A stretch of 59,548 nt of DNA from positions 1 to 59,548 of the IMG/VR virus record IMGVR_UViG_3300012926_000005; one strand, 5' to 3'. Numbering within the stretch: the first letter of the stretch is position 1; each line of letters begins with the position of its first letter. This DNA is from a virus (lineage: Duplodnaviria > Caudoviricetes). The notes under the pieces are model-generated. The model saw nothing but the letters and a program-made list of their open reading frames with translations, did no database searches and was not told the DNA's origin. Position numbers and translations under genes: made by a program. This document shows positions 1,385 to 57,119 of this stretch, piece after piece.

Positions 1385-2545
1385 ATGAAAAGACTACTTA
1401 CTATCGCTGTGCTTCTGATTCTGTCTAACGTTGGACACTCGCAGTCAAACGTAGGTTCTGGCAGTGCCAGCACTAATGCTGACGGCACTTCACGTGTGGC
1501 CGCAACGCCGACTAGCTTATTCTATGACGGCTTCGAGACTTCTTTTGACACGGGGGCGAAGTGGAATTCCCCTACCAGCGCGGGTGGTGGAGTGGGAGAA
1601 GCATTTGTATCAGGCGGCGGGGCGATCACGTTAGGTACGGGAACGACGATCAACGGTTACAGCTACGTTCAGAGCCAAGTGACCTACCAACCCGTTCCCC
1701 CTGGGTTTTTGGTGTTTGAAGACGCAATCAAAGTTGACACTACGATTCCGGCGAACACGGAAGCATTTTGGGGTTTTGGTACTTCTCCTGCTTCACCTAC
1801 GGCGGCTGTTCCTATCACGGAAGGCTGCGGATTTGAAATACAGTCTTCAGGTACGGCGGGTACGGCTAAGATGTTCGCTGTTTGCTTCGCTGGAAGTACG
1901 CGAAACAATATTCAGGATTTGTCAGCGGCGACGGGAAACAGTAAACAGCCGACAGACGGCAATACGCATGTTTATTTCGTTTACTTCCGTGGCGATAGGT
2001 ATTGGTTTGCGATTGACTCACCTACGAACATAGTGGCACAGCAATTCAATGGAGCTAACGGGCCGAACGTAAACACGCAGCCGTTAAAGATTCAAGCTGT
2101 AGCAGGAACGATTGCTCCTGTATCAAGCCTGACTATTACTGTGGCTTCTGTCTGGGTAGGAGACTCCGGCAGTAACGGAGTCTATTCAGCGGCTTCTGGG
2201 TCACAGGCATCGGCAATACAGACCATTCAGTCAACGGCCACAGAGTCAGGGCATATATTAAAAGGCTCTGCCGGTAATTTTTACGGAGTCGTAGTTACTT
2301 CTACGGTCAATGGCCTAGTGATGATTTTCAATTCTGCGACTGTACCGGGAGACGGAGCGGTGACGCCAATCTACTGTCTACGTCTTACTCCTGACTCTGG
2401 CGGATCAGGGACAGTGAGTATCAGCTTTCTTCCCGGCCCTCCGGCCTTGTTTACTACTGGAATTTCTGTAGCTATGTCCACAGGCACGAATTGTGCCTCT
2501 AAGACGGCGAGTGCAACGGCGTGGATTACGGGGCTGGTGAAATGA
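1385..2545 (+). CDS. Beta-rich virion/fibre-like protein with N-terminal signal peptide
   Basis: MKRLLTIAVLLILSNVGHS-Q; G/S/T-rich, lectin-like central region. Confidence 0.6.
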   Translation: MKRLLTIAVLLILSNVGHSQSNVGSGSASTNADGTSRVAATPTSLFYDGFETSFDTGAKWNSPTSAGGGVGEAFVSGGGAITLGTGTTINGYSYVQSQVTYQPVPPGFLVFEDAIKVDTTIPANTEAFWGFGTSPASPTAAVPITEGCGFEIQSSGTAGTAKMFAVCFAGSTRNNIQDLSAATGNSKQPTDGNTHVYFVYFRGDRYWFAIDSPTNIVAQQFNGANGPNVNTQPLKIQAVAGTIAPVSSLTITVASVWVGDSGSNGVYSAASGSQASAIQTIQSTATESGHILKGSAGNFYGVVVTSTVNGLVMIFNSATVPGDGAVTPIYCLRLTPDSGGSGTVSISFLPGPPALFTTGISVAMSTGTNCASKTASATAWITGLVK

Positions 2546-4335
2546 AGCATATTATTTGCATAGTGCTCCTATCAGGTCTGTGTCTGGGGCAAGCGGTAAC
2601 AGGGACATCGGGTAGCGGCTCGCCATCTGGCACTTCTAATGTCCAGCCGACGTTTGTTAGTAACAGCGCTGCGTCAGTGGTCGGTGCAGGTACGACGCTG
2701 ACTATTACAGCGCCAGCAACCATTACAAACGGCAATGCGCTAGTAATTTTCATGTCAATTTCTGGAGCCGCAAGCGAAACGTTTACTTTTCCTGCGGGAT
2801 TTTCCCAGATTGGTTCTACTCTTAGTTCTGTGGGCAGTGCGAAGATTCAAGTTGCCGCAGCCTGTAAAGTCGCCGCAAGTGAATCCGGAAACTACGTCGT
2901 TAGCTGGAATAACAACACCAATACGGCTGTGGGCTGGATGGTCAACTTGTCCGGTACAAGCTGCACGACGGACGGAGTAGGTACGGCTTCTGGTAATGCC
3001 TCTACGCTCACGGCAACGACTTTCACTCCGACAACGGCAAACGACATTTTTCTTGTCCTAAGTTCTCAGTCTTCTTCTGCTCTTAATTGGGTCAATGTGC
3101 CTGGGAACGTGGTTAAAATAGCGCAGTCCAGCGATTCGTTTTTGGGCTACTTGCCATGGGGTACTGGCGTTTCGCCAGCGGTAAAGATGGCTTATACTCT
3201 GTCTGGGTCGGCCAATGCCAATGACTCAGGTGTTTTTGTTATTGCTTTTCCAGCTACAACGACAGCAACGAATGCCCTGGTAGCCAATTCGTCTTCAGTC
3301 GCGCAAAGGGTCAACAGTATCAACGTGACCAACGGGATAGACGCTGGAGGAAGCATTAAAGGAAGTACTTTTTTAATACCTAATGGAGCTTCCTGCACAT
3401 CAACATCTTCTGGTCTTGATGGTATTTCTGCTGGCGGAAATATAGAGAAATTGCTTTGTATCAACAGTGCTGGTGCCTTGTCCTTAGATGCTGGTGGCGG
3501 ACTGACGTTTGTGAGCACGGCGGGCGGTGCGCGTGGCGGGCCATCGTTCTTGATTAGCAATGGAGCGCTAGCAGGGGTAAGTATCGATGCCAGTCAAGAT
3601 TTACCGATGGCAGATATAACTTCGCCGGGAAACGATTTGGTAGTTGGATGTAAAACTGGAGCACCAGCATCACTTATTAACTGCACTTCAGCATCTCAGT
3701 CCGGGAATATTTACGTGAACGTACAAACTGGACTTGCAGAGTTCTTTCAAGTAAATGACTCTACGGTTTTTGAGGTTGTAGGCGGCGGAACGATATTTAC
3801 TGAGGCTGCTGGGCCTACGAATGTTGCGTCTTCTGGTTCCTTTTGGGAAGATTCAACCGCGCATGAATGGAAGTCATCTACGGCGGGGTCATCTACGCCT
3901 GGTCTATTTGCAAGAGTTCAACCCGGAGTAATCCACCAAACTGCTCAAACAGCGGCAATATCTACAGCAACGCTCTGTGCTTCTTCAGCGGGGGCTTGTA
4001 ATGTTGCTGGAACCTATCATGTCAGTTTTGTCTTCTGGGAAGACGGTACCGCTTGCGCTACTCCGGGTACAGGTGGAGTAACTTTTTTGCTTACATGGAC
4101 GGATTTCAATACAACCTCGCACCCAGCAGTGTCGCTAGGGATGGATGATGCAAGTGCTATTAATGCAGTGTCACAAACTTTCCATTTCCAGACTTCTTTA
4201 GCCGCAGCTTGGGCATCCGGTGATTTTAATATTTCAACCAATGGTGCGATTATCCAGTATGCAACGGGCTATACGGCCTGCGGAGTCGGCACGGGGAGTT
4301 ATGGTTTAGATATTGCGGTTACGAGGGTGAGGTAG
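2542..4335 (+). CDS. Fibre/spike-like S/T/G/A-rich protein with signal peptide
   Basis: ATG at 2542 overlaps the previous stop (ATGA); MKHIICIVLLSGLCLG-Q. Confidence 0.6.
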   Translation: MKHIICIVLLSGLCLGQAVTGTSGSGSPSGTSNVQPTFVSNSAASVVGAGTTLTITAPATITNGNALVIFMSISGAASETFTFPAGFSQIGSTLSSVGSAKIQVAAACKVAASESGNYVVSWNNNTNTAVGWMVNLSGTSCTTDGVGTASGNASTLTATTFTPTTANDIFLVLSSQSSSALNWVNVPGNVVKIAQSSDSFLGYLPWGTGVSPAVKMAYTLSGSANANDSGVFVIAFPATTTATNALVANSSSVAQRVNSINVTNGIDAGGSIKGSTFLIPNGASCTSTSSGLDGISAGGNIEKLLCINSAGALSLDAGGGLTFVSTAGGARGGPSFLISNGALAGVSIDASQDLPMADITSPGNDLVVGCKTGAPASLINCTSASQSGNIYVNVQTGLAEFFQVNDSTVFEVVGGGTIFTEAAGPTNVASSGSFWEDSTAHEWKSSTAGSSTPGLFARVQPGVIHQTAQTAAISTATLCASSAGACNVAGTYHVSFVFWEDGTACATPGTGGVTFLLTWTDFNTTSHPAVSLGMDDASAINAVSQTFHFQTSLAAAWASGDFNISTNGAIIQYATGYTACGVGTGSYGLDIAVTRVR

Positions 4336-4349
4336 GTATAATTTAAGCC

Positions 4350-4798: not shown

Positions 4799-5107
4799 AT
4801 GAAAAAACTACTCCAATCAATCTTTGGTTTGGCTCTACTGGCTACTGGTTTTGCCTGTGGGCGCTACAAGGCTCCCGTAGTCCACGCTCAAGGTCAGTTT
4901 CTTCAACAGTACGTCCTCGAAGTCAATACCCAGCGCGGCTTTAGCGGCGTCCGTTTTATGAAGAACAACGGAACTCAATTGAACCTTGACGACGGCACGT
5001 GGCTATCAGAGGCCGTTGTTAGTCCAGCAACCGGGTCTACGTTCACAAAGACAGAGGCTTTGCCGAACAGCACGGCGACCTTTACGGAGACATACTCGCA
5101 GCCATGA
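4799..5107 (+). CDS. Exported hypothetical protein (possible lipoprotein)
   Basis: MKKLLQSIFGLALLATGFA-C; TATAAT at 4787-4792 lies 6 nt before the ATG. Confidence 0.6.
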   Translation: MKKLLQSIFGLALLATGFACGRYKAPVVHAQGQFLQQYVLEVNTQRGFSGVRFMKNNGTQLNLDDGTWLSEAVVSPATGSTFTKTEALPNSTATFTETYSQP

Positions 5108-7119
5108 AGTCCAACGTTAGACTAATTGTGTTCCTGGTTATGGCCTGTGCATCCGCATGGGCCAATCAGGCATTTACGGGCAACTGCAACCAAGGAGGAA
5201 CTAAGGCCGTAGTTCAAGGAATTCAGTCAAGCAATAAGCTAGTCGGCAGTTATCCGGGGTGTGTAGTTACGGTTTTCATGCACGGGACTATTACGCTGGC
5301 GGCGATATTTGATGACAGCGGAACACCAATAGCCAATCCTCTCACGGCGTCACTGACTACGGGGCAATTTATCTTCACGGCTGCTAACTCTCGCTATGAT
5401 ATTCAACTTTCAGGAGGCGGGCTTCCTTCGGCGGTGACGATTACTGACGTTCTTTTTAACGACAATGCGTCGGCCAATCCATTTAGCTTCTGTACTGTGA
5501 CTTTCAGTGCAACGCCTACTTTTTCTTCGGCATCTTGCAATATCTTTCAAATGACCTTGACGGGCAATGTCGCGTCATCTATCTATTCGACGGCTACGAG
5601 CGGAGCACAAGCGATATTCATCCTCTGCCAGGACTCAAGCGGCGGGCATACGTTCACTTGGCCGACTACGATGATAGATACTCCGGCGATAAATCAAACT
5701 GCGAGTCAGTGTACTAATGTTTACTTTGTGGCCGATGCGACACCTAAATTTCATGCCGTAGGTGCTGCGGGTGACGGAAGCCATATCGTAGCAACGACAT
5801 TGAATAACGGCGCAGGTAGCGTAACTATTCCGTCCACTGGTTCAGCGGCAATCATTGCCGGAAGCAACGGCATTGTGCCTTCGACGTGCTCTACGAATAA
5901 CTACGTCAATCAGATCAACTCTTCTGGAGTACTAGTCTGCGGTACTCCAGTGACGGCGAATACAGGGACTACGCATCAGTTCTTCAGTTCCAACACTGCC
6001 GGAGGGGTATTTACGGGGACGCAGCCGACGCTATCGGACGTAGCCGCAGGTACGGCCAGTTCTGGAACGTATGACTTCTCTGGAGTGACGGTCTTTAAGA
6101 TTCGTGTAGCTGCTGGACTAACTACGGCGGCTAACGGTGAATGCGGATTTGATTCGACCAATGGGAACTATCACTGCTGGAACGGTGCGGATAACTTTGT
6201 CGGCATGTGGTCAGCTACTCCGACTACTACGGACTGTGTAAAAGCTACAGTCAGCGCCAATAAAGTATCTCTGACGGATAACGGAGGGCCGTGTGCAATT
6301 ACGGTAGCGGCAGTAGCCAGTAACTTCTTGACTAGCTACACTTCAACAACTGGACTGTTTACTAAAGCACAACCTGCCTTCACGGACATTTCTGGATCAG
6401 TAGCAGCCGCGCAATTACCTAACCCGTCATCTACGACTCTAGGCGGGGTCAAGTCGTTAGCTCTAGTAACCAATAAGTTCCTGACTGACATTACGACGGG
6501 CGGGCTTCCGGAAGCCGCACGGCCTGTAGTGGGAGACATCACGCCGGGAACAAATGGCCAGTGCATTAACACGACAGGCGGCGTAAGTGTATGGGGAGCC
6601 TGTGCAGGCACGGCGGGTGTGCAGACTACGGCTACGCCTAACACTGCGGGCGCTACGGTAGCTGGTAATACAACGGCATCTCAAGTTCTATTAGGGCAGT
6701 CGTTTGGTGCCGGGACGTTAAATACTCTAGGATCAACTTTCCGGCTAGAAGGCTACGGTACATATAATGCTGTTAACACAACGGAAACTGTAGCTATCAG
6801 CATTGTAAAGCTGGCAGGAGACGTAATAACAGGACTGTCGGTAGTGCCAGGAACTACGGGGTCGGATTTAAGTTGGCATATAATAGTCACCTGTACGACT
6901 ACGACGACCGGAGCAGCGGGAGTATTGACTTGTCCAACTTCCGGAGAGATAACCAGATCAGCGGGCGGAACTGTTACGGTAGTTCCTTATGCGGCGGCTA
7001 CTATAACAGGAGTAGACCTGACAGGAGCCAATACGTTTTCTATTGCCGCATCGTTTACGACGGCATCGGTCAGCAATTCGGCATCGCAAGCATATTTACT
7101 AGCGTTAAGGATTCAGTAA
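5104..7119 (+). CDS. Tail fibre/spike-like protein with signal peptide and internal repeats
   Basis: Signal peptide ending AWA; then a domain typical of podoviral fibre anchors (VTVF..GT..LA.IFDD..NP.TA..GQF.F.A..RYDI); three FL(T/S)..G....QP..D(I/V) repeats. Confidence 0.7.
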   Translation: MKSNVRLIVFLVMACASAWANQAFTGNCNQGGTKAVVQGIQSSNKLVGSYPGCVVTVFMHGTITLAAIFDDSGTPIANPLTASLTTGQFIFTAANSRYDIQLSGGGLPSAVTITDVLFNDNASANPFSFCTVTFSATPTFSSASCNIFQMTLTGNVASSIYSTATSGAQAIFILCQDSSGGHTFTWPTTMIDTPAINQTASQCTNVYFVADATPKFHAVGAAGDGSHIVATTLNNGAGSVTIPSTGSAAIIAGSNGIVPSTCSTNNYVNQINSSGVLVCGTPVTANTGTTHQFFSSNTAGGVFTGTQPTLSDVAAGTASSGTYDFSGVTVFKIRVAAGLTTAANGECGFDSTNGNYHCWNGADNFVGMWSATPTTTDCVKATVSANKVSLTDNGGPCAITVAAVASNFLTSYTSTTGLFTKAQPAFTDISGSVAAAQLPNPSSTTLGGVKSLALVTNKFLTDITTGGLPEAARPVVGDITPGTNGQCINTTGGVSVWGACAGTAGVQTTATPNTAGATVAGNTTASQVLLGQSFGAGTLNTLGSTFRLEGYGTYNAVNTTETVAISIVKLAGDVITGLSVVPGTTGSDLSWHIIVTCTTTTTGAAGVLTCPTSGEITRSAGGTVTVVPYAAATITGVDLTGANTFSIAASFTTASVSNSASQAYLLALRIQ

Positions 7120-7548: not shown

Positions 7549-7653
7549 ATGTGTCAAGACCCTGCCCCAAGTCCCACACCGACGCCTACTCCAGTGCCGC
7601 CTCCCCCTCCACCCCCACCGCCTCCCCCTCCACCGTCTCCACTGGAGGAGTAG
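7549..7653 (+). CDS. 34-aa poly-proline peptide (13 consecutive Pro)
   Basis: AGAGGAG RBS; MCQDPAPSPTPTPTPV-P13-SPLEE*; all four Pro codons used. Confidence 0.6.
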   Translation: MCQDPAPSPTPTPTPVPPPPPPPPPPPPPSPLEE

Positions 7654-7667
7654 TCTAACGTTGGACA

Positions 7668-9050: not shown

Positions 9051-9264
9051 AGACCACTTTCGGGAACTTCTGCTATGTAGCATGGCGCTAATCTTTGCCA
9101 TGATAGCGGTGTGGACGATTAAACATGACGCTACAGAGGCGTTTAAATGGTCGTCCGCAGCCGTTACGACGCTCCTTGGGGCGTTATTGATGCTTATGCG
9201 TGGCCCAAGTACAGAAGCCCCTCCTAAGGCGAAGTCCGACGTTGGACAAGAGGAAAAGAAGTAG
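9034..9264 (+). CDS. Two-TM small protein, holin candidate
   Basis: Two hydrophobic helices and a charged C-terminus. Confidence 0.45.
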   Translation: MKQLIEDHFRELLLCSMALIFAMIAVWTIKHDATEAFKWSSAAVTTLLGALLMLMRGPSTEAPPKAKSDVGQEEKK

Positions 9265-12200
9265 ATGGCGGATTACTCTCGCCCAGCTTCGGCAGAACGC
9301 TTTAAGTTCGGCGGGGTAAAAACAAATTCCTCTGCCGATAGTCTTCCTCCGCACAAATATAGCTTTGCTCAAAATGTCCGTGGCTACAGTGAATCGTCTA
9401 TCCAGTCTCGTCCGCAAATCGTTCAGCAAGTAGCCGTGCCGTTCGGCGGCAGTACGTCAGTTCTTGCTTTAGAGCCGGACATAGGTATCTACAAGCAAGG
9501 GTCGGCCATTCAGCAGTTTGCTAGTGGCGTGGTAGTAGATACGGGATACTCTTCAGGCCAGGGGTGCTCAATAAGACCTTTTCGTCCCAATGCTACTCCT
9601 AACGCATGGGATTATGTTTTTGATGACGCGCAAAACAAAAAAATCTACATAAACTCTGCTGGTACGCCGACAGTCCAAAAGGTAGGGATAGCCGAGCCGC
9701 AAAACCCTCCAGATGCTTGTCCGGATCACATGAACGTAGCTGGCGTAAATGTGGCGGCGTGGACTAATTCAGGGACGATGCTAGCACCAGCGGGGTTTAA
9801 TCGGACTACAGGAACGGTGTCAGCGTTCTTTGCTGATCCTGCTTCCGTGTCTCCTAGTCTAGCGACTAGGTACAGTATCGTGGTGGATAATCAGGTCTAC
9901 GCTATCGGGATGCTGGTGTCAGTAAATCTATCGAGCGGCGGGGCACTGCAAGCTGTAGTACAAGACGTGTTTCCTGCTATCAACCCGGCAGGTACATTGA
10001 CAGTGGCGTCTATTTTTTACGATTCTGGAGTAACAGGGACTTGTGTTGTAGTACCAGCACAGATGCCTATCAGTGGGTCAATTCCGTCAGATGTTCCGAG
10101 GGCGCAGGCTGAATCGGTTTTCAATGAAGACTTCATATCTTCGCTTCGCCGGGGTAGTATTATAACCATCGGTGCCGAGCAGGTCTTTGTCAGGACTGTA
10201 ACTAAAGGGCCGCAGGGAAATATCAGCATTCAGACATCTACAACTATAAACCATGTGGCCGGAGAAGTGATTACTGGTAACTTGGCTTTAGCTGTATCGT
10301 TTACGGAAAATCCGGCGTTGATCATAGGTCAGACGATCCAGTCGGTTGATTTCGTAGCTGGTATAGGGCCAGGGATAGGGATTGCTTTCAGTGCGCTGGC
10401 AACTAATCCGTTCACGGTAGCGCCGTTCTTGTCTGATCCTACGCTTCCGACTTCGCAGCAAGACGACTATATCCACATGTCGATCTTCATAGACGACCCA
10501 GCGAAGTTTGAAGAAGTAACAATCATCTTTGACGTTAATAACGGCGTGATGTCTTTTCAGGATAATTGTTATTACCGGACAGTGAGAATCAACGACGCGC
10601 AAGCCGGATTCTCGCAGACTCTATCCCAGATCGGTGCAGCACAGTTAGCTGAACAAAGGCTACTAATTGACCAACAAGCGGCGAGTGGTGGCGCTGGGAC
10701 GGTAAGAAGTTCGATTCAGTCAGCTACCGGAGTTAGGCAGTGGTCAGAGATAAAGTTTCCTATCAGTTCGCTGAACAGGATTGGTAATGACAAGACTCGG
10801 ACTCTAGCTAATACACAAGGCGTAGAGCTTTTATTTAGGGTCAATGGCGGTACTTCAGTAGCTTGGTCTAGTCTCTGGGTAGGAAATGGTCAAGACCCGG
10901 ACGTAGGGGATACGGGCAGTCCGATATTCTATCGGGTAAGACCGAGAAGCGCAGTTACAGGCGTTAAGGGAAATCCGAGTCCGGCGACTCGATACGGTGT
11001 AAATCCAAGAAGGCAGCAAGTGATAGTGTCTCTGCCATCGGCGGCTTACGATACGCAGATTGATACTTGGGACATTGAGAGAACTGGAGCGACGCTGACT
11101 GACTGGAGATATGTAGGTTCTACGCAGACGACGAATACGACCTACACGGACAAGCTATTTGATTCAGTTATTGAAAATAATTCGACCGATCAGTTTATGA
11201 ACCTAGAGCCGTTCCCATCTATTGGCCCTCCGATTACGGCTATATCGGCAACGATCATAGGCACGGTTATGACGGCGGTGTTTCCGCTGTCAACGGCTGC
11301 ATTAGGTTTGAGTTCAGTGGGTACGCTGTCTCAGCTTGGCAATCTTCTGCCGGGAAATCTGTTCAACGTTGGACAACAGGTATTCACGCTGCGTAAGCGG
11401 CCTACTGTAGTGTCTACGACGGCAACGACGCAGACATACCTATTCACGCTTGAGGAAAACGCAGGAACGCAGACTAATCCACTGGTTTTACTACAAGAGC
11501 CTACGTTAGCCGCGCAACCAACGAACAACGTGTGGGGGCCGGATGCGTTTGGCGTGTTCTTTTCGGTGAATGCGGGAACGGTCAATAACGGCGGTTCTTT
11601 GGGATTAAGGCCAGGACTGATTCAGTGGACAAATCCGAACAATCCTGACGGGGCTAGCGATGCGAACACGAAAGATATTTGTCCGCCTACGGAGCCTCTT
11701 ATAAATGGCGAACTACTTGGGCCTACGCCGTGCGTGGCGTCCTCTAAGCGCTGGTGGAGAGGGGCTAGGAATAGTGACGGTTCGTATTCATGGGGAAATG
11801 AAATCCCTGTAGGCGCGGGACTGGCCGCAGAGTTCGGAATCTGTTCAGATGGTGAAGCTGTCTACTTCGTAGCTAAAGACGGCATCTGTAAGCATTCTGG
11901 TGGGCCTAGGCAATCCCTGACAGACGAAGATTTGTATAACTTGTTTCCGCACGAAGGCATTTTTCCGACTGACGTTACGCCGTACTCAGGTAAGACGATC
12001 TTTGCGCCGGAGTACAAGTACGCAGCTAATATGCGGCTCGGTGTCATCAATGGATTCTTGTATTACGACTATCTTGACAGTACGCAGGCGCAGAGGACTT
12101 TAGTTTGTAACCTGAAGACTGGCGCATGGGTGCCGGATGACTACTCTAATATTTCCAGAGTGTCAATTCACGTTCCTTCTGGCGCGGCAGCGTCAAACTT

Positions 12201-13900: not shown

Positions 13901-13907
13901 GAAAAAC

Positions 13908-40472: not shown

Positions 40473-40473
40473 G

Positions 40474-44812: not shown

Positions 44813-44819
44813 ACTTGAC

Positions 44820-45636: not shown

Positions 45637-45639
45637 GGC

Positions 45640-47127: not shown

Positions 47128-47429
47128 AGAAGGCAAACAAATGGAATGGGAAAACAGCGCCGACGATCTCACGGAAGACGAATGGCAAAGATTCCAATGG
47201 GGCCGAGTCCGCAGCGCTAGTTCTTCTGCGGCAAGACTTCGCTCTGCATTGTCGCAGACTGAGAACGGGCATGGGGTTGACGCAAGCGGAGTTTGGTAAG
47301 TTGCTGGGCTACGGTAAGACCAACGGCTATGTTGCGGTAAGTCGGCTGGAGCGGGGAGAACATAAGCCACAGCAAGAGTATTTAGTCCGGTTCATGGAAA
47401 TTCAGATCAAGTACGACAATCGAGTTTAG
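47124..47429 (+). CDS. XRE-family HTH transcriptional regulator
   Basis: RRLR..MGLTQAEFGKLLG......VSRLERGEHKP. Confidence 0.88.
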   Translation: MKKANKWNGKTAPTISRKTNGKDSNGAESAALVLLRQDFALHCRRLRTGMGLTQAEFGKLLGYGKTNGYVAVSRLERGEHKPQQEYLVRFMEIQIKYDNRV

Positions 47430-47453
47430 TCCAACGTTAGACAGGAGAAAATT

Positions 47454-47984: not shown

Positions 47985-48416
47985 TTGATTACAAATATCC
48001 TGAGTCAATTAAAACGGGATGAGGGCTTGAGCCTCAAGCCCTATCGGGATAGTCGCGGCATTATTACGGTGGGTTACGGCCACAACTTAGAAGTTAACCG
48101 CGAGAGCGCCAGAGAAATCACAGAAGAACGCGCTAACCAGTTTCTCCAGTCTGACCTAGAGGAAGTTACGCGGCGAATCCATATGAAAATAGATTGGGCC
48201 GACAGGCTAGATACTGTCCGGTTTGGCGTCCTGCAAAACTTGGGTTTTAATGTCGGTGTTGGTGCGCTGCTAGGTTTCAAGAAAACTCTGGGCTATATCG
48301 AGAACGGCGACTATAACAGCGCAGCCGATGAAATGCTTGATTCAGATTGGGCCAAGCAAGTAGGCGACCGGGCGGTACGGCTGGCAGAACAAATGCGCTC
48401 CGGCCAATGGGTCTAA
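47985..48416 (+). CDS. Endolysin, T4-like lysozyme (GH24)
   Basis: LKRDEG...PYRD..G..TVGYGHNL; FN.G...L.F; AADEMLDS.WAKQVG.RA.RL. Confidence 0.95.
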   Translation: MITNILSQLKRDEGLSLKPYRDSRGIITVGYGHNLEVNRESAREITEERANQFLQSDLEEVTRRIHMKIDWADRLDTVRFGVLQNLGFNVGVGALLGFKKTLGYIENGDYNSAADEMLDSDWAKQVGDRAVRLAEQMRSGQWV

Positions 48417-48425
48417 CGTTGGACT

Positions 48426-49022
48426 ATGCCCACAATCCCCCAAAAGATGATGGCTTGCCGCAAGCTGGGCCTAACTGACAGTTTCGAGCCGACTGCAAAA
48501 ATATCCCACATCTTCGAGAAGATAAGCCTAGGCGAAGTAATTTCTTGTCTGCGGACTTCACAGGACGAAAACGCGATGATGATATGCGCGATGTTCGATA
48601 GGCTTAATGCTTCACAGGCAAAAGCTATTGACATAGACTATTTGGCGGCAGCGGCCCACTGCAAAGACGTGTACAAAATCGCGGGATTAATCACGGAGAC
48701 TTACACGCGAGTCAAGGGGATGGAAACGGCGATGAGGGCCGCGCAAGAGTCGCCGGGGATTATGAAGTCGGTGACACGTCATGCTAAGGGCAAAGACGGC
48801 TTTCATCATGCCAAATTGGTTTTGCAGACGACAGGAGTAGCGCCGACGCCGAAGAATAACACTAACGTTTTCATTGGCAACAAGATCGACAATAGTAAGC
48901 ACCAAACGAACGTTGTGGCTACGCACTCTCAGACCGTCGATGAAGTTGGTGATATTCTCTCCAAATTGACAGTTCCTAAGGCTCTCGATGTTCCACCGTC
49001 AAGTCATAGCACGGAAGACTGA
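48426..49022 (+). CDS. Putative terminase small subunit
   Basis: Immediately upstream of and overlapping TerL; helical with a C-terminal N/T-rich strand. Confidence 0.55.
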   Translation: MPTIPQKMMACRKLGLTDSFEPTAKISHIFEKISLGEVISCLRTSQDENAMMICAMFDRLNASQAKAIDIDYLAAAAHCKDVYKIAGLITETYTRVKGMETAMRAAQESPGIMKSVTRHAKGKDGFHHAKLVLQTTGVAPTPKNNTNVFIGNKIDNSKHQTNVVATHSQTVDEVGDILSKLTVPKALDVPPSSHSTED

Positions 49023-51213
49023 GGCTATCGAGAAAGCCAAGAATATCAAGCTGCGGGAAAACTCCGTAGAGGAGTGCATTACTCTTTACGATCACTTCAA
49101 GTCAATGGAAGTGATGGAGTCTAAACATCCGGTTTACTGCCGTAAGGGCGAATCTCCTAAAGACTTCAAGTTTACAGAGCAGGAATCAGCATGGATCAGA
49201 AATGAAATGCTGATGTGTGCTTGTTCGTTCCCGTATTGGTTCTTTCGCTACTTCTTTGTAAAATCAACAATCAAGAAAGACGGTAAGGTAGTCAGTGAAA
49301 ACATTCGCCGTCCAGACGTGTGGATAGCGCAGTTAATCTACTTGGAAATTCTGGCCGAGCTAGACTTGCGCGGTCTACCGATTTTGCTACTGGCGTTGAA
49401 AGCAAGACAACTCGGGATTTCGACGGTCACAGAAGCAATTATTCAGTGGATGGCCATATTCACTAAAGGTTCGCACTGCGTAGTAGCTTCGTCCGAAACA
49501 GAGAAGTCGGAAGAAATGGCCAACATGATTTGGCTGGGGCTTGACATGATGCCCTTGTGGATGAAGCCAGTTCTGACAAGAGAGGACAGGAAGATTGGGC
49601 CGGAGTTCGGGCTAATTCACTCAGACATTGTTTTGCAGCACGGCTCTCAGATGAAGGGTATTGCCACCGGATCGACGCCGATAGCTGCGCACCTGTCGGA
49701 AGTCGCCTATTACCCGAATCCGATTGAAACAATCGAACGTTCTTTGATTCGCGCCATGCACGAAAACCCAAGGACGTTTTTAGTTCTGGAGTCCACGGCA
49801 CGGAAAAAAGATGATTGGTTTCATAAAACTTGGGTCAAGAACCGAAAGGGCGAACAAGAGGGATACAATCGTTTTACGTGTATGTTCCTTCCCTGGTATG
49901 TCGGCAGAGACATATATCCGACTCCAGACTTCCTTTTAAGCCATCCTATACCCCAAGGGTGGCGACCCATGAAAGAGACGCTTAAACAGGCGCTAGATGC
50001 CAAGCTATACGTGTCTACGACGCCTCTGCTTAAGAAGCACATGCCCGACAATTGGGAAATGCCGATTGAGCAGATGTGGTTTTGGGAATTCAATTACCAC
50101 GAGGCGATGGAAGGCGGCGACGAAACTCTGAAGGCGTTCATGTCAGAGCTTGCGGCGGATGAAAGGTCTTGTTTCCAGTCTAAGCGTTGGTCAGTATTCG
50201 CTCAAGGTGTGCTAGATAAACTAGAGGCAGAAATCAGCGACAAGTACCAAGACTATGCCATGATCGGTGACGGCATAGATGAGCGGTTTGCGCTGAAAGA
50301 CTTTCAGTCACATTCGCACAAACGGATAGACATTGAGTGGGCCACGATTGACGGGAAAAACCTGTACTGGAAATTAATTCCGCTGAAAGAGACGCCGCGA
50401 GACGAGAAGCTAGATTTCTACTTGAGAGTATGGGAGAAACCTAAACCGGGGTATAAATATACAATCGGAATAGACATTGCTTCCGGCCAGGGGCAGAACC
50501 GGACAGTATATTTTGTCAACCGCATCGGCAAAGAAGGGGAGCCAGACCGGGAAGTAGCTTTACTGTGTTCGGCGTGGATAGCTTCACCGGAGAGTCCAGC
50601 GTTTGCTAACCTTCTGGGAATCTGGTATGGGCAGTACATGGGCGCTATGAGTCCGTATGTCGCGGAAGCACAGTTATCGCCGGAAGTTCAGAAAGCCGTA
50701 GGAGACTTTATCTCTTTCCAGCTTTCCAAGCTAGGCTACACAAACTTCTACTACATGCAGCGCTTTGATATTCGCAGGCATCCCGGCCAGAAGGGAACAC
50801 GACGCGGCTGGGCAACAATGGGATGGTCACGGCAGATGATGATGGAAGCCTTTGAGCACGCGATCAAGGCCGGATGGATCGAAGTCAATTCGCAAGAGCT
50901 AATAGACGAACTTGGGAGCCTAGAGTCTGACGTTACTGAGGGCGATAAGACGTTCTACGATCACTCTTCCGAAGGAACCGACGATGTATACATGGCGGGC
51001 GGAATTGCGTACTTTACTTCTCACGACAATCAGACTATTATGGAGCGGATGAAGGGCGCTGCCGCACCAAAAAAGAGAAAACGCGACGAAGATGCCCCTA
51101 AGCCAGAGAGAGAATCGGGCATTTCGCAATTGAGTCGCAAGTTTATGTTTGAAGACACGATGAACAAAGATTTTGCCGGAGAGGTAGAGGGGGGCGGCGG
51201 GCATGTCTACTAG
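48988..51213 (+). CDS. terL: Terminase large subunit
   Basis: LKARQLGIST (Walker A), HLSEVAY (Walker B), LESTA (coupling), IGIDIA.G and DDVYMA (RNase H-like nuclease). Confidence 0.95.
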   Translation: MFHRQVIARKTEAIEKAKNIKLRENSVEECITLYDHFKSMEVMESKHPVYCRKGESPKDFKFTEQESAWIRNEMLMCACSFPYWFFRYFFVKSTIKKDGKVVSENIRRPDVWIAQLIYLEILAELDLRGLPILLLALKARQLGISTVTEAIIQWMAIFTKGSHCVVASSETEKSEEMANMIWLGLDMMPLWMKPVLTREDRKIGPEFGLIHSDIVLQHGSQMKGIATGSTPIAAHLSEVAYYPNPIETIERSLIRAMHENPRTFLVLESTARKKDDWFHKTWVKNRKGEQEGYNRFTCMFLPWYVGRDIYPTPDFLLSHPIPQGWRPMKETLKQALDAKLYVSTTPLLKKHMPDNWEMPIEQMWFWEFNYHEAMEGGDETLKAFMSELAADERSCFQSKRWSVFAQGVLDKLEAEISDKYQDYAMIGDGIDERFALKDFQSHSHKRIDIEWATIDGKNLYWKLIPLKETPRDEKLDFYLRVWEKPKPGYKYTIGIDIASGQGQNRTVYFVNRIGKEGEPDREVALLCSAWIASPESPAFANLLGIWYGQYMGAMSPYVAEAQLSPEVQKAVGDFISFQLSKLGYTNFYYMQRFDIRRHPGQKGTRRGWATMGWSRQMMMEAFEHAIKAGWIEVNSQELIDELGSLESDVTEGDKTFYDHSSEGTDDVYMAGGIAYFTSHDNQTIMERMKGAAAPKKRKRDEDAPKPERESGISQLSRKFMFEDTMNKDFAGEVEGGGGHVY

Positions 51214-51718
51214 CGTGGACTGGAATAAAGACGGTAGCTGCTGGATTGAGATAGCACCGGGACGCAAGAAGCTATTCGGCAAAAAACACCCTGCTACACT
51301 CGCTGCAAAAAATCGTCTAACGTTGGACTACATTCGAGAGGCCAAAAATAATAAGACCCGTGGCGGGCGTGGTGTGACGGTGTACTATCGGGATGAGAGC
51401 GGGAAAATCTGCCTTCCGCCGTCTCCGGATTTAGCGCCGAAAGGATACGTGATTCACGAAGCCAGCGGGCCGATAGCGCAAGACAAACTTTGCCGTGAAA
51501 TGGAAAGAGATTTAAGGGCTGACTACGGCAATGACTACATGACAGCTTACATGGACTCTGAGCAAGGCAATCCCCGTGACGTACTGGCAAGGACTCATGC
51601 CATGTCTAATTTGGAGCGGGACTTAATTGGTGCTATGCTGGAGGACTTGGACAAAGAAGAGTCTAAACGGCAGAGAGTTAACTGCAATACGTACTTTCCT
51701 GAGCGGGAGAGAATGTAA
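51203..51718 (+). CDS. Hypothetical protein
   Basis: Coupled ORF between TerL and portal. Confidence 0.65.
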   Translation: MSTSVDWNKDGSCWIEIAPGRKKLFGKKHPATLAAKNRLTLDYIREAKNNKTRGGRGVTVYYRDESGKICLPPSPDLAPKGYVIHEASGPIAQDKLCREMERDLRADYGNDYMTAYMDSEQGNPRDVLARTHAMSNLERDLIGAMLEDLDKEESKRQRVNCNTYFPERERM

Positions 51719-52080
51719 TGGGACAAGTGAGTAAAACGCTAAGAAGGATAGAAGGCGGATATGCCCACTGGTGTCCGGGCTGTCAAGAGATGCACAAACT
51801 TCCCGACTCTTGGACTTTTGACGGTAATGTCAATAGTCCTTCTTTTTCGCCGAGCTTCAAGCATGAAGGGATAAAAAGGGTATTCGTAGATGGTAAATGG
51901 AGTGGAGAATGGGTCAGGGATTCAAGCGGCAACACCGTCCCGTTTATATGTCACTACATTCTTACTTCCGGAGTGCTTAATTTTTGTGGCGATAGCACTC
52001 ATAGCGTTGCCGGGGAAGCTGTACCAGTACCAGAGCTACCTGACGGCCTAACTGATGGACAGGCAGAGGAAATGCTGTGA
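51718..52080 (+). CDS. DUF6527-like Cys/His protein
   Basis: CPGC..H, W.F.G....P.FSPS, CHY....G...FC.DS.H. Confidence 0.7.
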   Translation: MGQVSKTLRRIEGGYAHWCPGCQEMHKLPDSWTFDGNVNSPSFSPSFKHEGIKRVFVDGKWSGEWVRDSSGNTVPFICHYILTSGVLNFCGDSTHSVAGEAVPVPELPDGLTDGQAEEML

Positions 52081-54179
52081 GCGACAAAGACAAGCGCCGT
52101 AGCTGGCAAGTCCCGAAATATCCGTGTACCGACAAGAAAGAGCTACGGCAGTTCTTGAAGCAGAACGTTGAAGATGGCATCGGCTACCTAGAGGCTTCGC
52201 CGGGGTACTGCCAGCTGCAAGAGTCAATAAGGATTCTCTCAGGTAAGGCCGACGATAAGCTAGCCAACGAGCAAGACAAGAAAAACTACTCCAAGACTCA
52301 AACCAACCGACTCAAAAGAAATATCCGCGAGATGGTCAACTCTCTGGCGGAAATCCGCTACAATCCCGGATTCCATTCTAGTTCTAAAGACACGTTTGAC
52401 CTTGCTGAAGTGCTGAACAAGTATGGCGAGTACTGGTACAACAAAGAGTTCATTGACCTTCAGGTAAAGAAAGCTATTCAGTGGGCGGCGATCAGTCCGT
52501 GCGGATGGTTGGAGATTTGTTATCGGGAGATACCGGGAACACGGGGAGAGCGCCGGGTTGACCTGATACCTATGGGCTGGTTTGACGTAGTAATGACAGG
52601 AGTGCCGGACGACGGCGATCACCAGCAAGCCTACACGGTTACTACTATTAAAGATTTGCCGATGTATCAGGCCCATGCCCTGTTTCCAGAGTTCCAGAAA
52701 TGGCTTGCACCGGACAGGGAATCGCCGCGTGGATGGGTAGAGCGGATCAAGCAAAAAGCCAAAGAAGTAGTCAACGACGTTTTCGATACAACGCCAGATA
52801 CGACTACGGCCAAGAATCCGACGTGCAGGATTTACTATCAATACATCATTGACTTGTCTATCAATCGCACAAAATCAGCGATGAAGATGGGTTACGAGAA
52901 AAAGAAAAACCCAGAGACAGGGATAGAGGAAGAAGTAGAAACGCCGTGGAGCTACATCGTGCCGTTTGTGGGGCAGATGATACCTACAGGATTAGTTGAC
53001 AGGCCGATGCGTGTAGCCGAGCCAAGAGACTGCCGCATCTTCCCTGGTAGGCGGTTAATTATCGGTACAGAAAGACAGAACGGGCCGCACGAGGGCATTA
53101 TGTACGACGGGCCAATGTGGGACTGGCACGGCAAGGCTCCGCTGATTAAGTTCTGTGCGGATGAATGGGTGTTTGGTGAATTTTCGATGGTACATGATGT
53201 TGTGCCGATCCATGAGGCCATCAACGAGATTGACCGTATAAGCCATCAGACGCTAAGAAACAGGTTTAACCCCACAATGGGGTACAACAACCGCGCTATT
53301 GACCGGGGAAAGGCCAAGGCGGTTGATTTAAGAGTGCAGGGCGACCGGATCGGGTTTAACGGACAAGAGGCAGCGGATATTTCAAAGGCTATGGGGCCGT
53401 TGGTTCCGGCAAGTTTTAACGTCATTGAACCGTGGGTAGAAGCATTCAGGAAATACCTAGACGACGCCGAAGATTACCAGATGGGCGTCCGCAACTTTGA
53501 GGCTCTAGCCAAGATCAAGACGGCGGGAGCATCGGACGAAACCCAGAAGCTACTAGACGCAGCGGGGCCGATTGTAAAAGGCATTTCCCGTGACATGGAA
53601 CGGTCAATGCGCGACTTGGCCGACATGTTTAAATACATGGTCATTCAGTACATCGACACGCCAAAACTCATGGCAGTGTTGGGGCCGGATAGTATTACGC
53701 CAGTCAACTACGACTATGAACCGGGAAACCTGATTCCAGCGCACTTGCCAGGAGAAAATAAGTCAGGCAAAAGTATCTTCACAAAGATGGACAGAGCACA
53801 TTGGGCCGCGCAACACGCCGAGTTCATCATACTTCCTGGCCACTTGCATCAGATCACGCAAATGTCGCACAAGCTAATGATTATGCAAGCAGCCAAAATG
53901 GGCTTGCCTATTAGTTGGTGGACACTTAACGAGCGTCTAAGTCTGGGATTGAATCTAGGCCCAAGGCCAGGAAACACGGACATAGAAGCATGGTTTGCAC
54001 AGCAAAAAATGATGCTGGAATTTAAGGCTTCTCTGAGTGCCGAAGCGCAAGCGCTGCAAGGCGATGAACCGCCACACGCGGGCGGCGATAAAAAACAAGG
54101 CGGCAGGCCAAATACCGACCAAAAAGAACCTAAGCAAGCTATGAAGGGTGACGGACGCCCATTAACAAAAACTAGCTAA
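52077..54179 (+). CDS. Portal protein
   Basis: 700 aa between TerL and scaffold/capsid; C-terminal GGRP tail. Confidence 0.8.
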   Translation: MSDKDKRRSWQVPKYPCTDKKELRQFLKQNVEDGIGYLEASPGYCQLQESIRILSGKADDKLANEQDKKNYSKTQTNRLKRNIREMVNSLAEIRYNPGFHSSSKDTFDLAEVLNKYGEYWYNKEFIDLQVKKAIQWAAISPCGWLEICYREIPGTRGERRVDLIPMGWFDVVMTGVPDDGDHQQAYTVTTIKDLPMYQAHALFPEFQKWLAPDRESPRGWVERIKQKAKEVVNDVFDTTPDTTTAKNPTCRIYYQYIIDLSINRTKSAMKMGYEKKKNPETGIEEEVETPWSYIVPFVGQMIPTGLVDRPMRVAEPRDCRIFPGRRLIIGTERQNGPHEGIMYDGPMWDWHGKAPLIKFCADEWVFGEFSMVHDVVPIHEAINEIDRISHQTLRNRFNPTMGYNNRAIDRGKAKAVDLRVQGDRIGFNGQEAADISKAMGPLVPASFNVIEPWVEAFRKYLDDAEDYQMGVRNFEALAKIKTAGASDETQKLLDAAGPIVKGISRDMERSMRDLADMFKYMVIQYIDTPKLMAVLGPDSITPVNYDYEPGNLIPAHLPGENKSGKSIFTKMDRAHWAAQHAEFIILPGHLHQITQMSHKLMIMQAAKMGLPISWWTLNERLSLGLNLGPRPGNTDIEAWFAQQKMMLEFKASLSAEAQALQGDEPPHAGGDKKQGGRPNTDQKEPKQAMKGDGRPLTKTS

Positions 54180-54457
54180 TGTCTAACGTTGGACATGTCG
54201 AAGCTGCCTATCAAGAAGCAATCGAAAATCCCTCACGTTGTCGCAAAAGAAACGGAACTACATCAAGAAGCAAGACGGGACTTATGGGAGCTTACCGCTG
54301 TTTGCCTAGAGGCAAATGGCGTTCCTCTATCAGGATAAATGGCAAGACGACAATTCTAAAGAACGCCGAAGGTAAGACCTATTTTCACTCCGCAGAAGAA
54401 GCAAACGCCGCGTACATTAAAGCCGCTACAGACGCCGGGATAATTCAAGTCACTTAA
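54179..54457 (+). CDS. Stand-alone AP2-like DNA-binding domain protein (possible HNH-AP2 remnant)
   Basis: SKTG..GAY....KWRSSIRINGK....YF.SAEEA.AAY..AA. Confidence 0.7.
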   Translation: MSNVGHVEAAYQEAIENPSRCRKRNGTTSRSKTGLMGAYRCLPRGKWRSSIRINGKTTILKNAEGKTYFHSAEEANAAYIKAATDAGIIQVT

Positions 54458-55870: not shown

Positions 55871-55894
55871 ACAAGATTCAGTAGGAGACAAGCA

Positions 55895-57088
55895 ATGTCT
55901 TTGTTCGATCAAGTAAGCGTAAGCACTCTTCCAGCCTATACAAAGGGCTTGGTCAGCCGGACATTGTTTACGGCTACGGCGTTGCTGAGAACGCTCCGCA
56001 GCAATAAAAGCATTTACAAGCCGTGGCAGGGCGGGAGCTTCATGCTGAACCCGTTCGAGAATCAGCCGCTTCCGGCTGGGCCGTACTCTCCGGGTACTGA
56101 CACTTTCACGCTTGAGGAACGGCAGACGTTTGACGGCATGATTTTCCAGCCGAAAGCGTATAACGCTCAAGTGGTCATCAACGCGGCTATCACAGACCTG
56201 TACAACACACGGGGGCCGAGCCAGATTGTTGATGTGCTGAAAGAAAAGTACGGCAATGGCTCAAACTCGTTGGATTCTCAGGTAGCGGCAGACCTGTATA
56301 TTCATGGCCAGGGATCGTCTTCGACTGTGGCCAGCAACCGTATCAAGGCGGTCAACGGATTCGCGGAAGCCCTGAACGACGGCTTTACCCCGGCGTGGAA
56401 TGGTGACGTGTTCACGCTCTACGGCAGTCAGACGCGCAACAATGCGTCCAACGGCACTGTACTGAATAGCGTTCCGTTCTGGGGCGGCAATCCGGACGGA
56501 ACATCAGCTCCTATCAGCCTTCAGATTTTGAACCAACTGTACTGGAACTGTAAACAGGGCAAGGGCGAAGGTAAGTTGATCGGCGGTCATCCGGACATGG
56601 GATTCGCTTCTGACTTCCTCTGTGGGCGCATCGCTGGATTGGTTTATCCGATGCAGCGGGCCGACGTGGATGTAGAGCACGTTGGGGTAGGCATGAAGGG
56701 TATCAAGGTCAACGGTGCGATCATCTTCCCTGACTCCTACTCGCCGGGTACGCAAAATGCGCGGTACATCCAAGATCAGAGCGTGTTGAGCCGGATAACC
56801 ACGGGCACGATTACTAATCCTGTTTCTGTCGATTCAAACACGACACTGAGCAATTTCCCGTCACGGTCAGGCGGCGTCACGACTCTGACGGTCGGTGAAG
56901 TGTTTACATGGTGGAGAACTGACACATGGCGTTTCAGCTATCCCAAGACGGGAATCTACGCATTCAAGAATTCCGGCTTGCAGATGGCGATTGACGGCGA
57001 CATGAAGGCGGATGTGATTCGTGCGGCGATGGTGTTCTGTACGCTGGTGCCGTCGAGTAACCAACAGGCATTTGGCTTTTCAGGCTAG
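55895..57088 (+). CDS. Major capsid protein
   Basis: 397 aa; AGGAG RBS; position after scaffold; HK97-like pattern (GG.F...P, G..G...NGA.I.PD). Confidence 0.8.
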   Translation: MSLFDQVSVSTLPAYTKGLVSRTLFTATALLRTLRSNKSIYKPWQGGSFMLNPFENQPLPAGPYSPGTDTFTLEERQTFDGMIFQPKAYNAQVVINAAITDLYNTRGPSQIVDVLKEKYGNGSNSLDSQVAADLYIHGQGSSSTVASNRIKAVNGFAEALNDGFTPAWNGDVFTLYGSQTRNNASNGTVLNSVPFWGGNPDGTSAPISLQILNQLYWNCKQGKGEGKLIGGHPDMGFASDFLCGRIAGLVYPMQRADVDVEHVGVGMKGIKVNGAIIFPDSYSPGTQNARYIQDQSVLSRITTGTITNPVSVDSNTTLSNFPSRSGGVTTLTVGEVFTWWRTDTWRFSYPKTGIYAFKNSGLQMAIDGDMKADVIRAAMVFCTLVPSSNQQAFGFSG

Positions 57089-57119
57089 TAGTCTAACGTT
57101 AGACACGGAGAGTTTAGAA

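Follow-up and report, generated by a model that had tools for sequence, protein, structure and literature searches.

Evenly distributed palindromic DNA sites along the genome of a soil phage and a candidate protein reader

A genome-wide array of 14-bp sites

The virus record IMGVR_UViG_3300012926_000005 (Caudoviricetes) from IMG/VR has 59,548 bases, is classed as linear, and is estimated to be 94% complete. We analysed the entire record, which is called the window below. Between recognizable phage genes and within them (Table 1), the window carries many copies of the near-palindromic 14-mer GTCYAACGTTRGAC. There are 19 exact matches, the first at positions 1423-1436 and the last at 57091-57104. 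When up to two mismatches are allowed, the number of sites rises to 30, with nine carrying one mismatch and two carrying two. These are the counts and coordinates given by the initial annotation of this DNA, and they lie far above what shuffled sequences produce: 100 dinucleotide-preserving shuffles yielded no exact match, and a mean of only 0.46 matches (maximum three) with up to two mismatches. By form, 12 of the exact copies read T..G, six are the reverse-complement C..A, and one (57091) is the symmetric T..A, in agreement with the earlier statement that 18 of the 19 are asymmetric.

Table 1. Palindromic sites and other features of the window. Site forms give the outermost bases of the 14-mer.
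Feature	Position	Strand	Match and form	Context or basis
Site	1423-1436		exact, T..G	38 nt into open reading frame (ORF) 1385-2545, frame 2
Site	5109-5122		exact, C..A	5 nt past ATG of ORF 5104-7119
Site	7653-7666		exact, T..G	intergenic, GGAGGAG stretch on one side, ATG 7668 on the other
Site	9234-9247		1 mismatch	17 nt before ATG 9265; AAGAGGA stretch after site
Site	11361-11374		1 mismatch	middle of 1339-aa virion protein gene 9265-13284
Site	14063-14076		exact, T..G	ORF 13899-14207; G001 equivalent at same place and orientation
HNH endonuclease	14960-15703			PHROG/Pfam
Site	16107-16120		exact, T..G	within ORF 15694-16293
Site	19517-19530		exact, T..G	within ORF 18069-20315
Site	21885-21898		1 mismatch, C..A	ORF 21173-22105; G001 copy at same place is exact
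Site	23997-24010		1 mismatch, C..A	within ORF 23915-24250
Site	24500-24513		1 mismatch, C..A	
Weak site	25625-25638		2 mismatches	at stop of ORF 24903-25625, 2 nt before ATG 25641
Exonuclease	25942-26703			PHROG/Pfam
Site	26859-26872		exact, C..A	intergenic, 2 nt before ATG 26875; G001 counterpart in same region, 3' of exonuclease gene
Site	29886-29899		exact, T..G	abuts first hexamer of promoter-like site 29900-29928
Replication-initiator-like protein	29938-30924			PHROG/Pfam
Site	31368-31381		1 mismatch, C..A	
DnaB-like helicase	31529-32863			PHROG/Pfam
Site	31536-31549		exact, C..A	codons 3-7 of DnaB-like helicase gene
Sigma-70-like promoter	33565-33593	+		TTGACA, 17 nt, TAAATT with TG; before site 33610 and gene 33653
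Site	33610-33623		exact, C..A	provides stop of ORF 32860-33621; 17 nt past promoter-like site 33565-33593, 30 nt ahead of gene 33653; layout shared with G001
Top candidate binder	33653-34594	+		313 aa, Lys/Ala-rich N-terminal tail, helical core, predicted homodimer
HNH endonuclease	34631-34978			PHROG/Pfam
Site	37499-37512		1 mismatch, T..G	within ORF 37348-38031
Site	38509-38522		exact, T..G	intergenic, directly 3' of terminator-like hairpin 38472-38505
Site	40225-40238		exact	in minus-strand ORF 40058-40354, window-only block
DUF1257 protein	40474-40866			in minus-strand block 38522-43936
AAA ATPase	41112-42629	-		PHROG/Pfam
Site	41141-41154		1 mismatch	3' end of AAA ATPase gene
Weak site	42156-42169		2 mismatches	within AAA ATPase gene
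Site	42647-42660		exact	intergenic, 18 nt upstream of minus-strand ATPase gene start (42629)
Site	44242-44255		exact, T..G	within ORF 43973-44506
Site	46448-46461		1 mismatch, C..A	within ORF 46383-46598
Second candidate binder	47124-47429	+		101-aa Xre-type helix-turn-helix protein (Pfam HTH_3 / HTH_31)
Site	47429-47442		exact, C..A	first base is last base of Xre-type regulator gene stop codon; AGGAG and next gene after site; G001 copy at same place and orientation
Endolysin	47985-48416			PHROG/Pfam
Site	48411-48424		exact, T..G	holds TAA stop of endolysin gene; 1 nt before ATG 48426
Large terminase	48988-51213			PHROG/Pfam
Site	51315-51328		exact, T..G	ORF 51203-51718; G001 same place and orientation
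Portal	52077-54179			PHROG/Pfam
HNH endonuclease (small)	54179-54457			PHROG/Pfam
Site	54181-54194		exact, T..G	start of small HNH gene
Site	57091-57104		exact, symmetric T..A	2 nt past stop of major head protein gene 55895-57088; G001 same place

The reading frames and gene positions of the sites derive from our own longest-ORF gene calls. Among the coding copies, 13 are read in frame 2 (encoding peptides of the S-N-V-G or S-N-V-R type) and six in frame 1 (P/L-T-L-D type). No coding copy uses frame 0, in which TAA or TAG is always present; this frame supplies the actual stop codon for the genes ending at 33621 and 48416. Thus, the copies do fall in differing frames of unrelated proteins, as had been proposed from SNVG, SNVR and LTLD peptides, and one of them does lie at the N-terminus of the DnaB-like helicase. 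In 200 shuffles of synonymous codons within genes, exact copies averaged 6.6 (maximum nine) instead of 19, and copies with at most one mismatch averaged 9.7 (maximum 13) instead of 28, with the surviving copies being those located outside the shuffled codons. Because the coding copies vanish under this treatment, protein sequence together with codon usage does not explain them, and selection must act on the DNA. The initial annotation had reached the same view, which is further upheld by preservation of the 14-mer in a distant relative (see below).

The array is not an artefact of assembly, a concern raised when it was first noticed. Specifically, Logan contigs from sequencing run X1, possibly the source sample, match positions 26001-46000 of the window with no differences, and the 14-mer array is also carried by two further IMG/VR records that come from different samples.

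Conservation and turnover of the sites in related phages

When 2.9 million viral contigs were scanned for exact copies of the 14-mer, 85 stretches were returned, and multiple copies were present only in these two other records. The first, G001, is a complete genome of 59,682 bases with 24 exact copies and four one-mismatch copies, or 28 in total. The second, G002, is a 13-kb fragment from another sample that is 99.5% identical to G001 and holds seven exact copies and one with a single mismatch. Related phage contigs therefore carry the same 14-mer array.

The G001 genome is a distant relative. Only about 9.6 kb can be aligned with the window as DNA (64-77% identity), and the encoded proteins are 27-79% identical, with gene order the same. 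Eight sites of the window have a positional counterpart in G001. The motif itself is identical at 107 of 112 positions across these eight pairs, compared to 320 of 960 (33%) for their flanks (60 nt on each side, ungapped). Five pairs have the same orientation, two consist of one asymmetric and one symmetric (T..A) member, and one has opposite orientations (44242 in the window and 46754 in G001). The remaining sites are located elsewhere, yet both genomes contain 28 with at most one mismatch, indicating that number and density are maintained while individual sites turn over.

A block of minus-strand genes at 38522-43936 has no counterpart in G001, in the related genome G003, or in the cultured phages described below. 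It carries five copies of the palindrome, and hence newly acquired DNA also holds sites. In addition, fragments from a soil metagenome of another study (run X2) are 80-99% identical to positions 26001-46000 of the window. Differences and insertions occur directly beside sites 31536, 44242 and 29886, and none of the 40 differences listed falls inside a site, although 430 more differences exist.

The palindrome is absent from G003 (57,363 bases), which shares only the structural and packaging module with the window and has a different early module. With up to three mismatches, G003 contains three matches to the palindrome versus five for a reversed control. The nearest cultured phages are Tunturi_1 and Tunturi_2, which infect Tunturiibacter, with T. 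psychrotolerans X5P2 as a host of Tunturi_1. Their terminase is 49.4% identical to that of the window over 98% of its length, and the portal, the major head protein (58%) and tail genes are also shared. Both carry a sister palindrome, GTCCAATATTGGAC, whose arms match those of the window motif and whose centre is TA rather than CG. With up to two mismatches, it occurs at 12 sites in each Tunturi genome, compared to none for the reversed control. When only the arms are considered (pattern GTCYAANNTTRGAC), exact matches number 19 in the window, 24 in G001, five in Tunturi_1, six in Tunturi_2 and zero in G003. The corresponding numbers with at most one mismatch are 30, 28, 11, 10 and zero.

Other searches added little to this set. 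An exact scan of IMG/VR for GTCCAATATTGGAC gave single, chance-like matches among the matches listed, and queries of IMG/VR with the terminase, the portal and the protein encoded at 33653 found no relatives besides G001, G002 and G003. A scan of metagenomes for relatives returned a 3-kb piece and a 20-kb contig (L101) in which a tandem array at the end is the sole repeat. A megablast search with the first 25 kb of the window against phage records gave no match, and a portal profile run against 185,579 species genomes gave no prophage relatives. The array is a real, conserved and lineage-specific set of palindromic DNA sites.

Spacing, placement and symmetry

The sites with at most one mismatch are distributed evenly along the genome. 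For the window, the gaps between them have a coefficient of variation of 0.46, and for G001 of 0.48. Random placement gives approximately 0.95, and none of 5000 random site sets was as even as that observed. Site density is approximately one per 2.1 kb, and the largest gaps are 3889 nt and 5066 nt. The one-mismatch copies sit in the gaps between exact copies, and their inclusion raises the evenness of the array, which suggests that they are probably functional.

There is also a preference for gene junctions. In the window, a start codon is no more than 50 nt away from 13 of the 28 sites (3.8 expected), and eight sites are at least half intergenic (2.3 expected). In G001, 12 of the 28 sites are intergenic (3.2 expected). 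Such placement would suit a motif that acts in RNA as a small hairpin controlling translation initiation, processing or stability, particularly given that several sites fall between a Shine-Dalgarno-like stretch and an ATG, or just 5' of an ATG, and that a different 8-mer in G003 is often found between GAGG and ATG. However, we regard this explanation as highly improbable. The predicted hairpin is weak in the T..G sense (−2.6 kcal/mol) and nearly absent in the C..A sense (−0.1 kcal/mol), and a third of the copies (six, versus 12 in the other sense) have the latter, unstructured orientation. Moreover, over half of the sites are located deep within genes, and a search of Rfam returned nothing. 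Lower coding cost at junctions, together with the stop codon in frame 0, explains the preference for them equally well.

The unit of the array is the complete palindrome. There are 58 half-sites (GTCYAAC) in total, with 38 residing in exact copies and the remainder being near the chance figure of approximately 14.5. This lack of enrichment for half-sites on their own is what would be expected of a dimer on duplex DNA. Relative to the direction of the genes, exact copies appear 12 times as T..G and six times as C..A, with no tie to transcription, and orientation along the genome exhibits no clustering, polarity or strand bias (runs test P 0.27 and 0.98). The asymmetric form is preferred: it accounts for 18 of the 19 exact copies of the window and for 17 of the 24 of G001, more than the roughly one half that is the most to be expected from independent half-sites.

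We also considered the possibility that the sites are general operators of sigma-70-like promoters. This was rejected because few sites adjoin such promoters: only two of the 10 strong promoter-like sites in the window adjoin a palindrome (sites 29886 and 33610), and only sites 25213 and 35744 do so in G001 (reverse-complemented). Considered jointly, the features described in this section point to a duplex-DNA site that is read as a whole by a protein with two-fold or near two-fold symmetry. What the data establish is a genuine, evenly spaced motif that belongs to the phage lineage, acts as a full palindromic unit and is strongly constrained by purifying selection at the DNA level.

A strict 14-mer with a preferred asymmetric form could also serve an enzyme that treats the two strands differently, such as a phage nickase making localized single-strand interruptions like those of T5, or a modification enzyme that marks the central CG or its flanks. 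Three HNH endonuclease genes are present in the window, and a function in packaging or ejection would be compatible with the even spacing. This explanation seems unlikely to us, as none of the HNH genes tracks the motif. Specifically, those at 54179 and 34631 have no counterpart in G001, and the type found at 14960 is located elsewhere in G001 and is missing from Tunturi_2, which nevertheless retains 12 palindromes. No methyltransferase was identified among the window proteins scanned with PHROG and Pfam. Systems that nick one strand have sites whose orientation shows strand bias or polarity, and these are the characteristics that the orientation data above lack.

Candidate binding proteins

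The initial annotation named four window proteins as possible binders. Best supported among these is the product of the gene at 33653-34594, which occurs in all of the genomes with the palindrome, is predicted to dimerize, and is preceded by a conserved arrangement of promoter and site. Several window proteins are found in G001 and are absent from G003, but only this one is also encoded by both Tunturi phages (gp51 of Tunturi_1, E 2e-13, and gp50 of Tunturi_2). It has no homologue in G003, and the two Tunturi proteins were the only homologues among 50,697 phage records. Eight of nine homologues have N-terminal tails containing 24-29% Lys plus Arg, and the helical core is conserved.

An AlphaFold2 model of the 33653 protein has a mean pLDDT of 74, with values of 80-90 in the core. 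A homodimer prediction for residues 88-306 gave an ipSAE of 0.66 versus 0.00 for the best of three controls, and at least 74% of contacts agree between runs, with partner pLDDT of at least 80. As an approximate calibration, with our own alignment used, the mark for this score is reached by 20 of 30 known homodimers and by one of 23 single chains. The modelling therefore supports homodimer formation. The predicted interface involves helices 93-134 and 242-298, which leaves a helix-turn-helix-like segment at approximately 140-172, with a putative recognition helix at approximately 157-170, mostly free.

The order of promoter, palindrome, Shine-Dalgarno sequence and ATG in front of gene 33653 is kept in G001 even though the flanks are only 38% identical there. 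The location of a palindrome between the promoter and the ribosome-binding site suggests that the gene is autoregulated.

A possible alternative binder is the Xre-type protein encoded at 47124-47429. Its gene is conserved in G001, and in each of the two genomes a palindrome lies at the stop codon. Small helix-turn-helix genes are present at the matching positions of Tunturi_1 and, weakly, of G003. The remaining two proposals fared less well. The HNH protein at 54179 has no counterpart in the relative G001, and nothing was found for the ORF around 44099, with ORF 43973-44506 producing chance-level Atlas scores.

Gene content, likely host and the parallel in Saprospiria

PHROG and Pfam scans covered 70 ORFs of the window. 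No integrase or partition gene was detected among the 20 scanned ORFs of at least 300 aa, a tRNA scan of the window found none, and the protein encoded at 22897-23829 gave nothing against the PDB. Described as podovirus-like, Tunturi_1 and Tunturi_2 come from Arctic soil and infect Acidobacteriota; neither has an annotated integrase or recombinase, and lytic cycles were observed for the Tunturi isolates (PMC11924767). The runs that contain window sequence are soil metagenomes, and Shine-Dalgarno-like sequences precede 48% of window genes against a background of 14%. Given the nearest cultured phages, the soil runs and the use of Shine-Dalgarno sequences, the host of the window phage is likely a member of the Acidobacteriota.

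The identity of the host matters because the sites might be bound by a host protein that is recruited or titrated by the phage, or might derive from a host repeat. A transposase or repeat-binding protein of Saprospiria (Bacteroidota) is one example. Among the matches listed from a scan of genomes, approximately 27 of 80 loci are from Saprospiria, and five Saprospiria genomes hold 77, 28, 23, 17 and 17 copies of the 14-mer, compared to zero for the reversed control and approximately 0.1 expected. The T..G asymmetry is also seen in these copies. In Saprospiria, the 14-mer forms the inner portion of inverted ends (approximately 22 nt) that belong to transposable elements of 90-160 bp. The ends consist of GGSTAYCC followed by the phage 14-mer or variants of it, and are flanked by 8-bp target duplications (loci L223-L240; genomes G004, G006 and G008). 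These miniature elements have several unrelated inner sequences, and no autonomous partner was found. A link to REP/RAYT transposition was also tried and rejected: 12 Y1 transposase loci (of 16 matches in the five Saprospiria genomes) have no motif within approximately 1.5 kb, and a scan allowing three mismatches gave one chance-like match. No Y1 transposase gene was seen in the phage.

The Saprospiria parallel is inexact. In the whole G006 genome, exact 14-mers number just 23 although there are 182 element ends, and these ends have a variable centre base so that the palindrome is not conserved. The phage copies share nothing beyond the 14 nt, being devoid of the outer 8 nt (GGSTAYCC), a repeated internal sequence, an inverted partner end and the 8-bp target duplication. 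The Saprospiria genomes in question have no homologue of the 33653 protein. In addition, the nearest cultured phages infect Acidobacteriota rather than Bacteroidota. Extensive use of Shine-Dalgarno sequences, as seen in the window, is unusual for Bacteroidota.

In Acidobacteriota, the 14-mer is at chance level, with single copies in three of 301 sampled genomes versus 10 genomes for the reversed control, and two of the three positive genomes had been included owing to their detection in the motif scan. A host reader is therefore unlikely if the host is a member of this phylum. The parallel in Saprospiria is probably coincidental. With small probability it keeps alive the idea that a host protein or host repeat accounts for the sites, which we judge to be distinctly unlikely.

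Additional features of the window and its relatives

Four near-identical strong promoter-like sites are present in the early region (20781-20809, 22371-22399, 25960-25988 and 33565-33593), each with TTGACA, a 17-nt spacer and TG-n-TAAATT. The G001 version ends in TAACAT. They are probably the early promoters read by the host RNA polymerase. The plus-strand early genes end at a terminator-like hairpin (38472-38505) that has a 15-bp stem and a T-run extending into site 38509. The HNH gene of the 14960 type is at a different place in G001 and is present in Tunturi_1 but not in Tunturi_2, and this shifting presence and position indicate that it behaves like a mobile homing gene.

Six-bp palindromes are strongly avoided in the window, with 15 of the 64 having zero copies and 21 having at most one, and avoidance is also evident in G001. 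Those with zero copies include GGATCC, CTCGAG, GACGTC, CGATCG, GGGCCC and TTCGAA, for which a Markov model expects 4-24. Such extreme avoidance suggests unmodified DNA under heavy restriction pressure. The commonest 6-bp palindrome is AACGTT, the core of the motif, with 45 copies.

The G003 genome has its own repeats. A non-palindromic 8-mer, AGTTACCG, is present in 46 copies (approximately two expected) and in several cases occurs in the arrangement GAGG-CGGTAACT-1 to 3 nt-ATG, without coding-strand bias. Its orientation flips near 32.4 kb, with 22 minus and three plus copies below this point and 14 plus and seven minus above it. G003 also carries GTGGAGAGTGGA-type repeats with up to 19 copies of the 12-mer, and the terminal array of metagenome contig L101 (positions 1-100) is a 12-nt tandem array of the CCGCGCAGCAKC type.

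A proposed function for the array

The initial annotation proposed a phage-encoded, site-specific system that acts on the whole genome. Conservation, even spacing, the sister motif and the chance-level occurrence in Acidobacteriota all favour the core of this proposal. Its list of outcomes (coating, silencing, organizing, protecting or nicking) is too broad to be tested as a single claim. Most probably, the array provides docking sites through which a dimeric protein encoded by the phage acts genome-wide. The best explanation in our view, held with moderate confidence, is that the 14-mers are duplex-DNA docking sites for a homodimeric, sequence-specific protein encoded by the phage, most likely the product of 33653-34594. 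We infer that a protein binds at the sites, which protein this is, and that binding leads to silencing, organizing or coating of the DNA.

Mechanistically, sites would be kept at approximately one per 2.1 kb over the whole chromosome, with no site-free stretch beyond approximately 4-5 kb. The 33653 product, with its basic tail and a helical core that is predicted to dimerize while leaving the helix-turn-helix-like segment free, would bind the palindromes, and the palindrome upstream of its own gene would permit autoregulation. Starting from these nucleation sites, the protein might coat or bridge the phage chromosome, silence it, or dictate its programme of transcription.

Several observations weigh against assigning this role to a symmetric dimer of the 33653 protein. 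A symmetric dimer does not account for the preference for the asymmetric T..G/C..A form. The sites of Tunturi_1 are fewer and not evenly spread, and this phage has no site upstream of its 33653 homologue. The phyletic argument comprises three independent palindrome-bearing lineages and one palindrome-free genome, and all of these also have a small helix-turn-helix gene at a matching position. The 14-mer also resides in transposon ends of unrelated bacteria. Furthermore, the 33653 family (eight homologues in the Pfam run) has no Pfam or PHROG match, and the protein sequence has no match in the PDB. Foldseek searches with the 33653 model gave nothing in the PDB at E<=0.001, and the best match in BFVD (E 1.2e-3) was to uncharacterized proteins. 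A six-frame search of the window with the Pfam HTH_ParB and DUF3102 models gave nothing at E<=10. The leads toward DNA binding are weak, consisting of Atlas clusters of the ParB-HTH/DUF3102 type (0.85-0.86) and Foldseek matches at E 0.06-0.5 to DUF3102, partitioning and ParB-like proteins.

A more far-reaching version of the docking-site explanation, which we consider rather unlikely, is that the array underlies a minimal phage chromatin. A dimeric protein with a basic tail resembling that of histone H1 would be nucleated at the palindromes and would then coat or bridge the 60-kb chromosome of a lytic phage. If so, the protein would be a genome-wide organizer, shield or silencer comparable to ParB, KorB or nucleoid proteins but with an unrelated fold, and selection would operate on site spacing rather than site position. 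Whatever the array does, knowing its role would show how a little-known group of soil phages controls or packages its chromosome, and might yield a new DNA-binding fold with a defined 14-bp target. The function of the array can be tested directly because Tunturi_1 and Tunturi_2 are in culture with an Acidobacteriota host and carry both the sister motif and the candidate gene.

We know of no previous report of statistically even site spacing that is maintained through turnover. Genome-wide arrays of sites for one protein are known from temperate mycobacteriophages and plasmids and, to our knowledge, are unreported for an apparently lytic phage. A literature text search found the three 14-mers in no paper, and the strings 'palindrom' and 'motif' are absent from the available portion of the Tunturi phage paper (PMC11924767).

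Comparison with known systems

Among the known analogues suggested at the outset were the stoperators of mycobacteriophages, where an immunity repressor occupies sites across the prophage and blocks elongation in the lysogen. According to excerpts of an account of cluster A phages, the phage-encoded repressor of the L5 gp71 type has more than 20 copies of its site in a genome of approximately 50-60 kb, many in short intergenic spaces (PMC9283540). The roughly 28 sites in the approximately 60-kb genome of the window, with their enrichment in short intergenic spaces, resemble this arrangement. However, stoperators are asymmetric 13-mers bound by a monomer and their orientation follows transcription, which is needed for function, whereas the sites described here are near-palindromic 14-bp units without enriched half-sites and with orientations unrelated to transcription. 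The analogy breaks down on these two points. Stoperators are also found at promoters and in short intergenic spaces; the present sites are enriched at gene junctions but lie mostly inside genes. They are spaced with significant evenness. Furthermore, stoperators serve lysogenic immunity, whereas lysogeny genes were not found among the scanned ORFs, prophage relatives were not found among the species genomes searched, and the Tunturi phages provide a lytic precedent. We therefore assign very little probability to silencing of a prophage by stoperators.

Palindromic site sets of 12-16 bp with dimeric helix-turn-helix readers, which organize DNA or exert their effect from a distance, are known from ParB-parS, Noc, SlmA and MatP. 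The KorB operators of plasmid RK2, as described in excerpts of the literature (PMC11790492), are similar to the present sites in being short, scattered palindromes with a dimeric helix-turn-helix reader. As in ParB and KorB systems, the palindromic sites fall in the range of 13-16 bp and number several per replicon. Unlike those systems, the window yielded no ParB-family protein (N-terminal CTPase domain plus ParB helix-turn-helix) with the HTH_ParB and DUF3102 models (PF02195 was not among the models run). Also, no ParA-type ATPase was seen in the general PHROG/Pfam scans, although no search was aimed at ParA. The present array further differs from these sets in its far higher density, its evenness, and its apparently lytic, podovirus-like carrier.

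Nick sites in T5-like phages and some Pseudomonas podoviruses are few in number, localized to one strand and irregularly placed. The array resembles them in that a short, conserved sequence recurs throughout a phage genome, but the window has 28 evenly spaced sites in mixed orientations that are not confined to one strand. The C1 operators of phage P1 and the inverted repeats of Streptomyces phage phiC31 each provide one regulator with well over 10 dispersed sites. Both of these phages are temperate and their sites are at promoters, in contrast to the few palindromes that adjoin promoter-like sites here. The array is unusual in that two diverged genomes have each kept its even spacing independently, and in that its carrier is apparently lytic. 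By analogy, the array appears to work most like these dispersed operator sets, while being a member of none of the systems compared.

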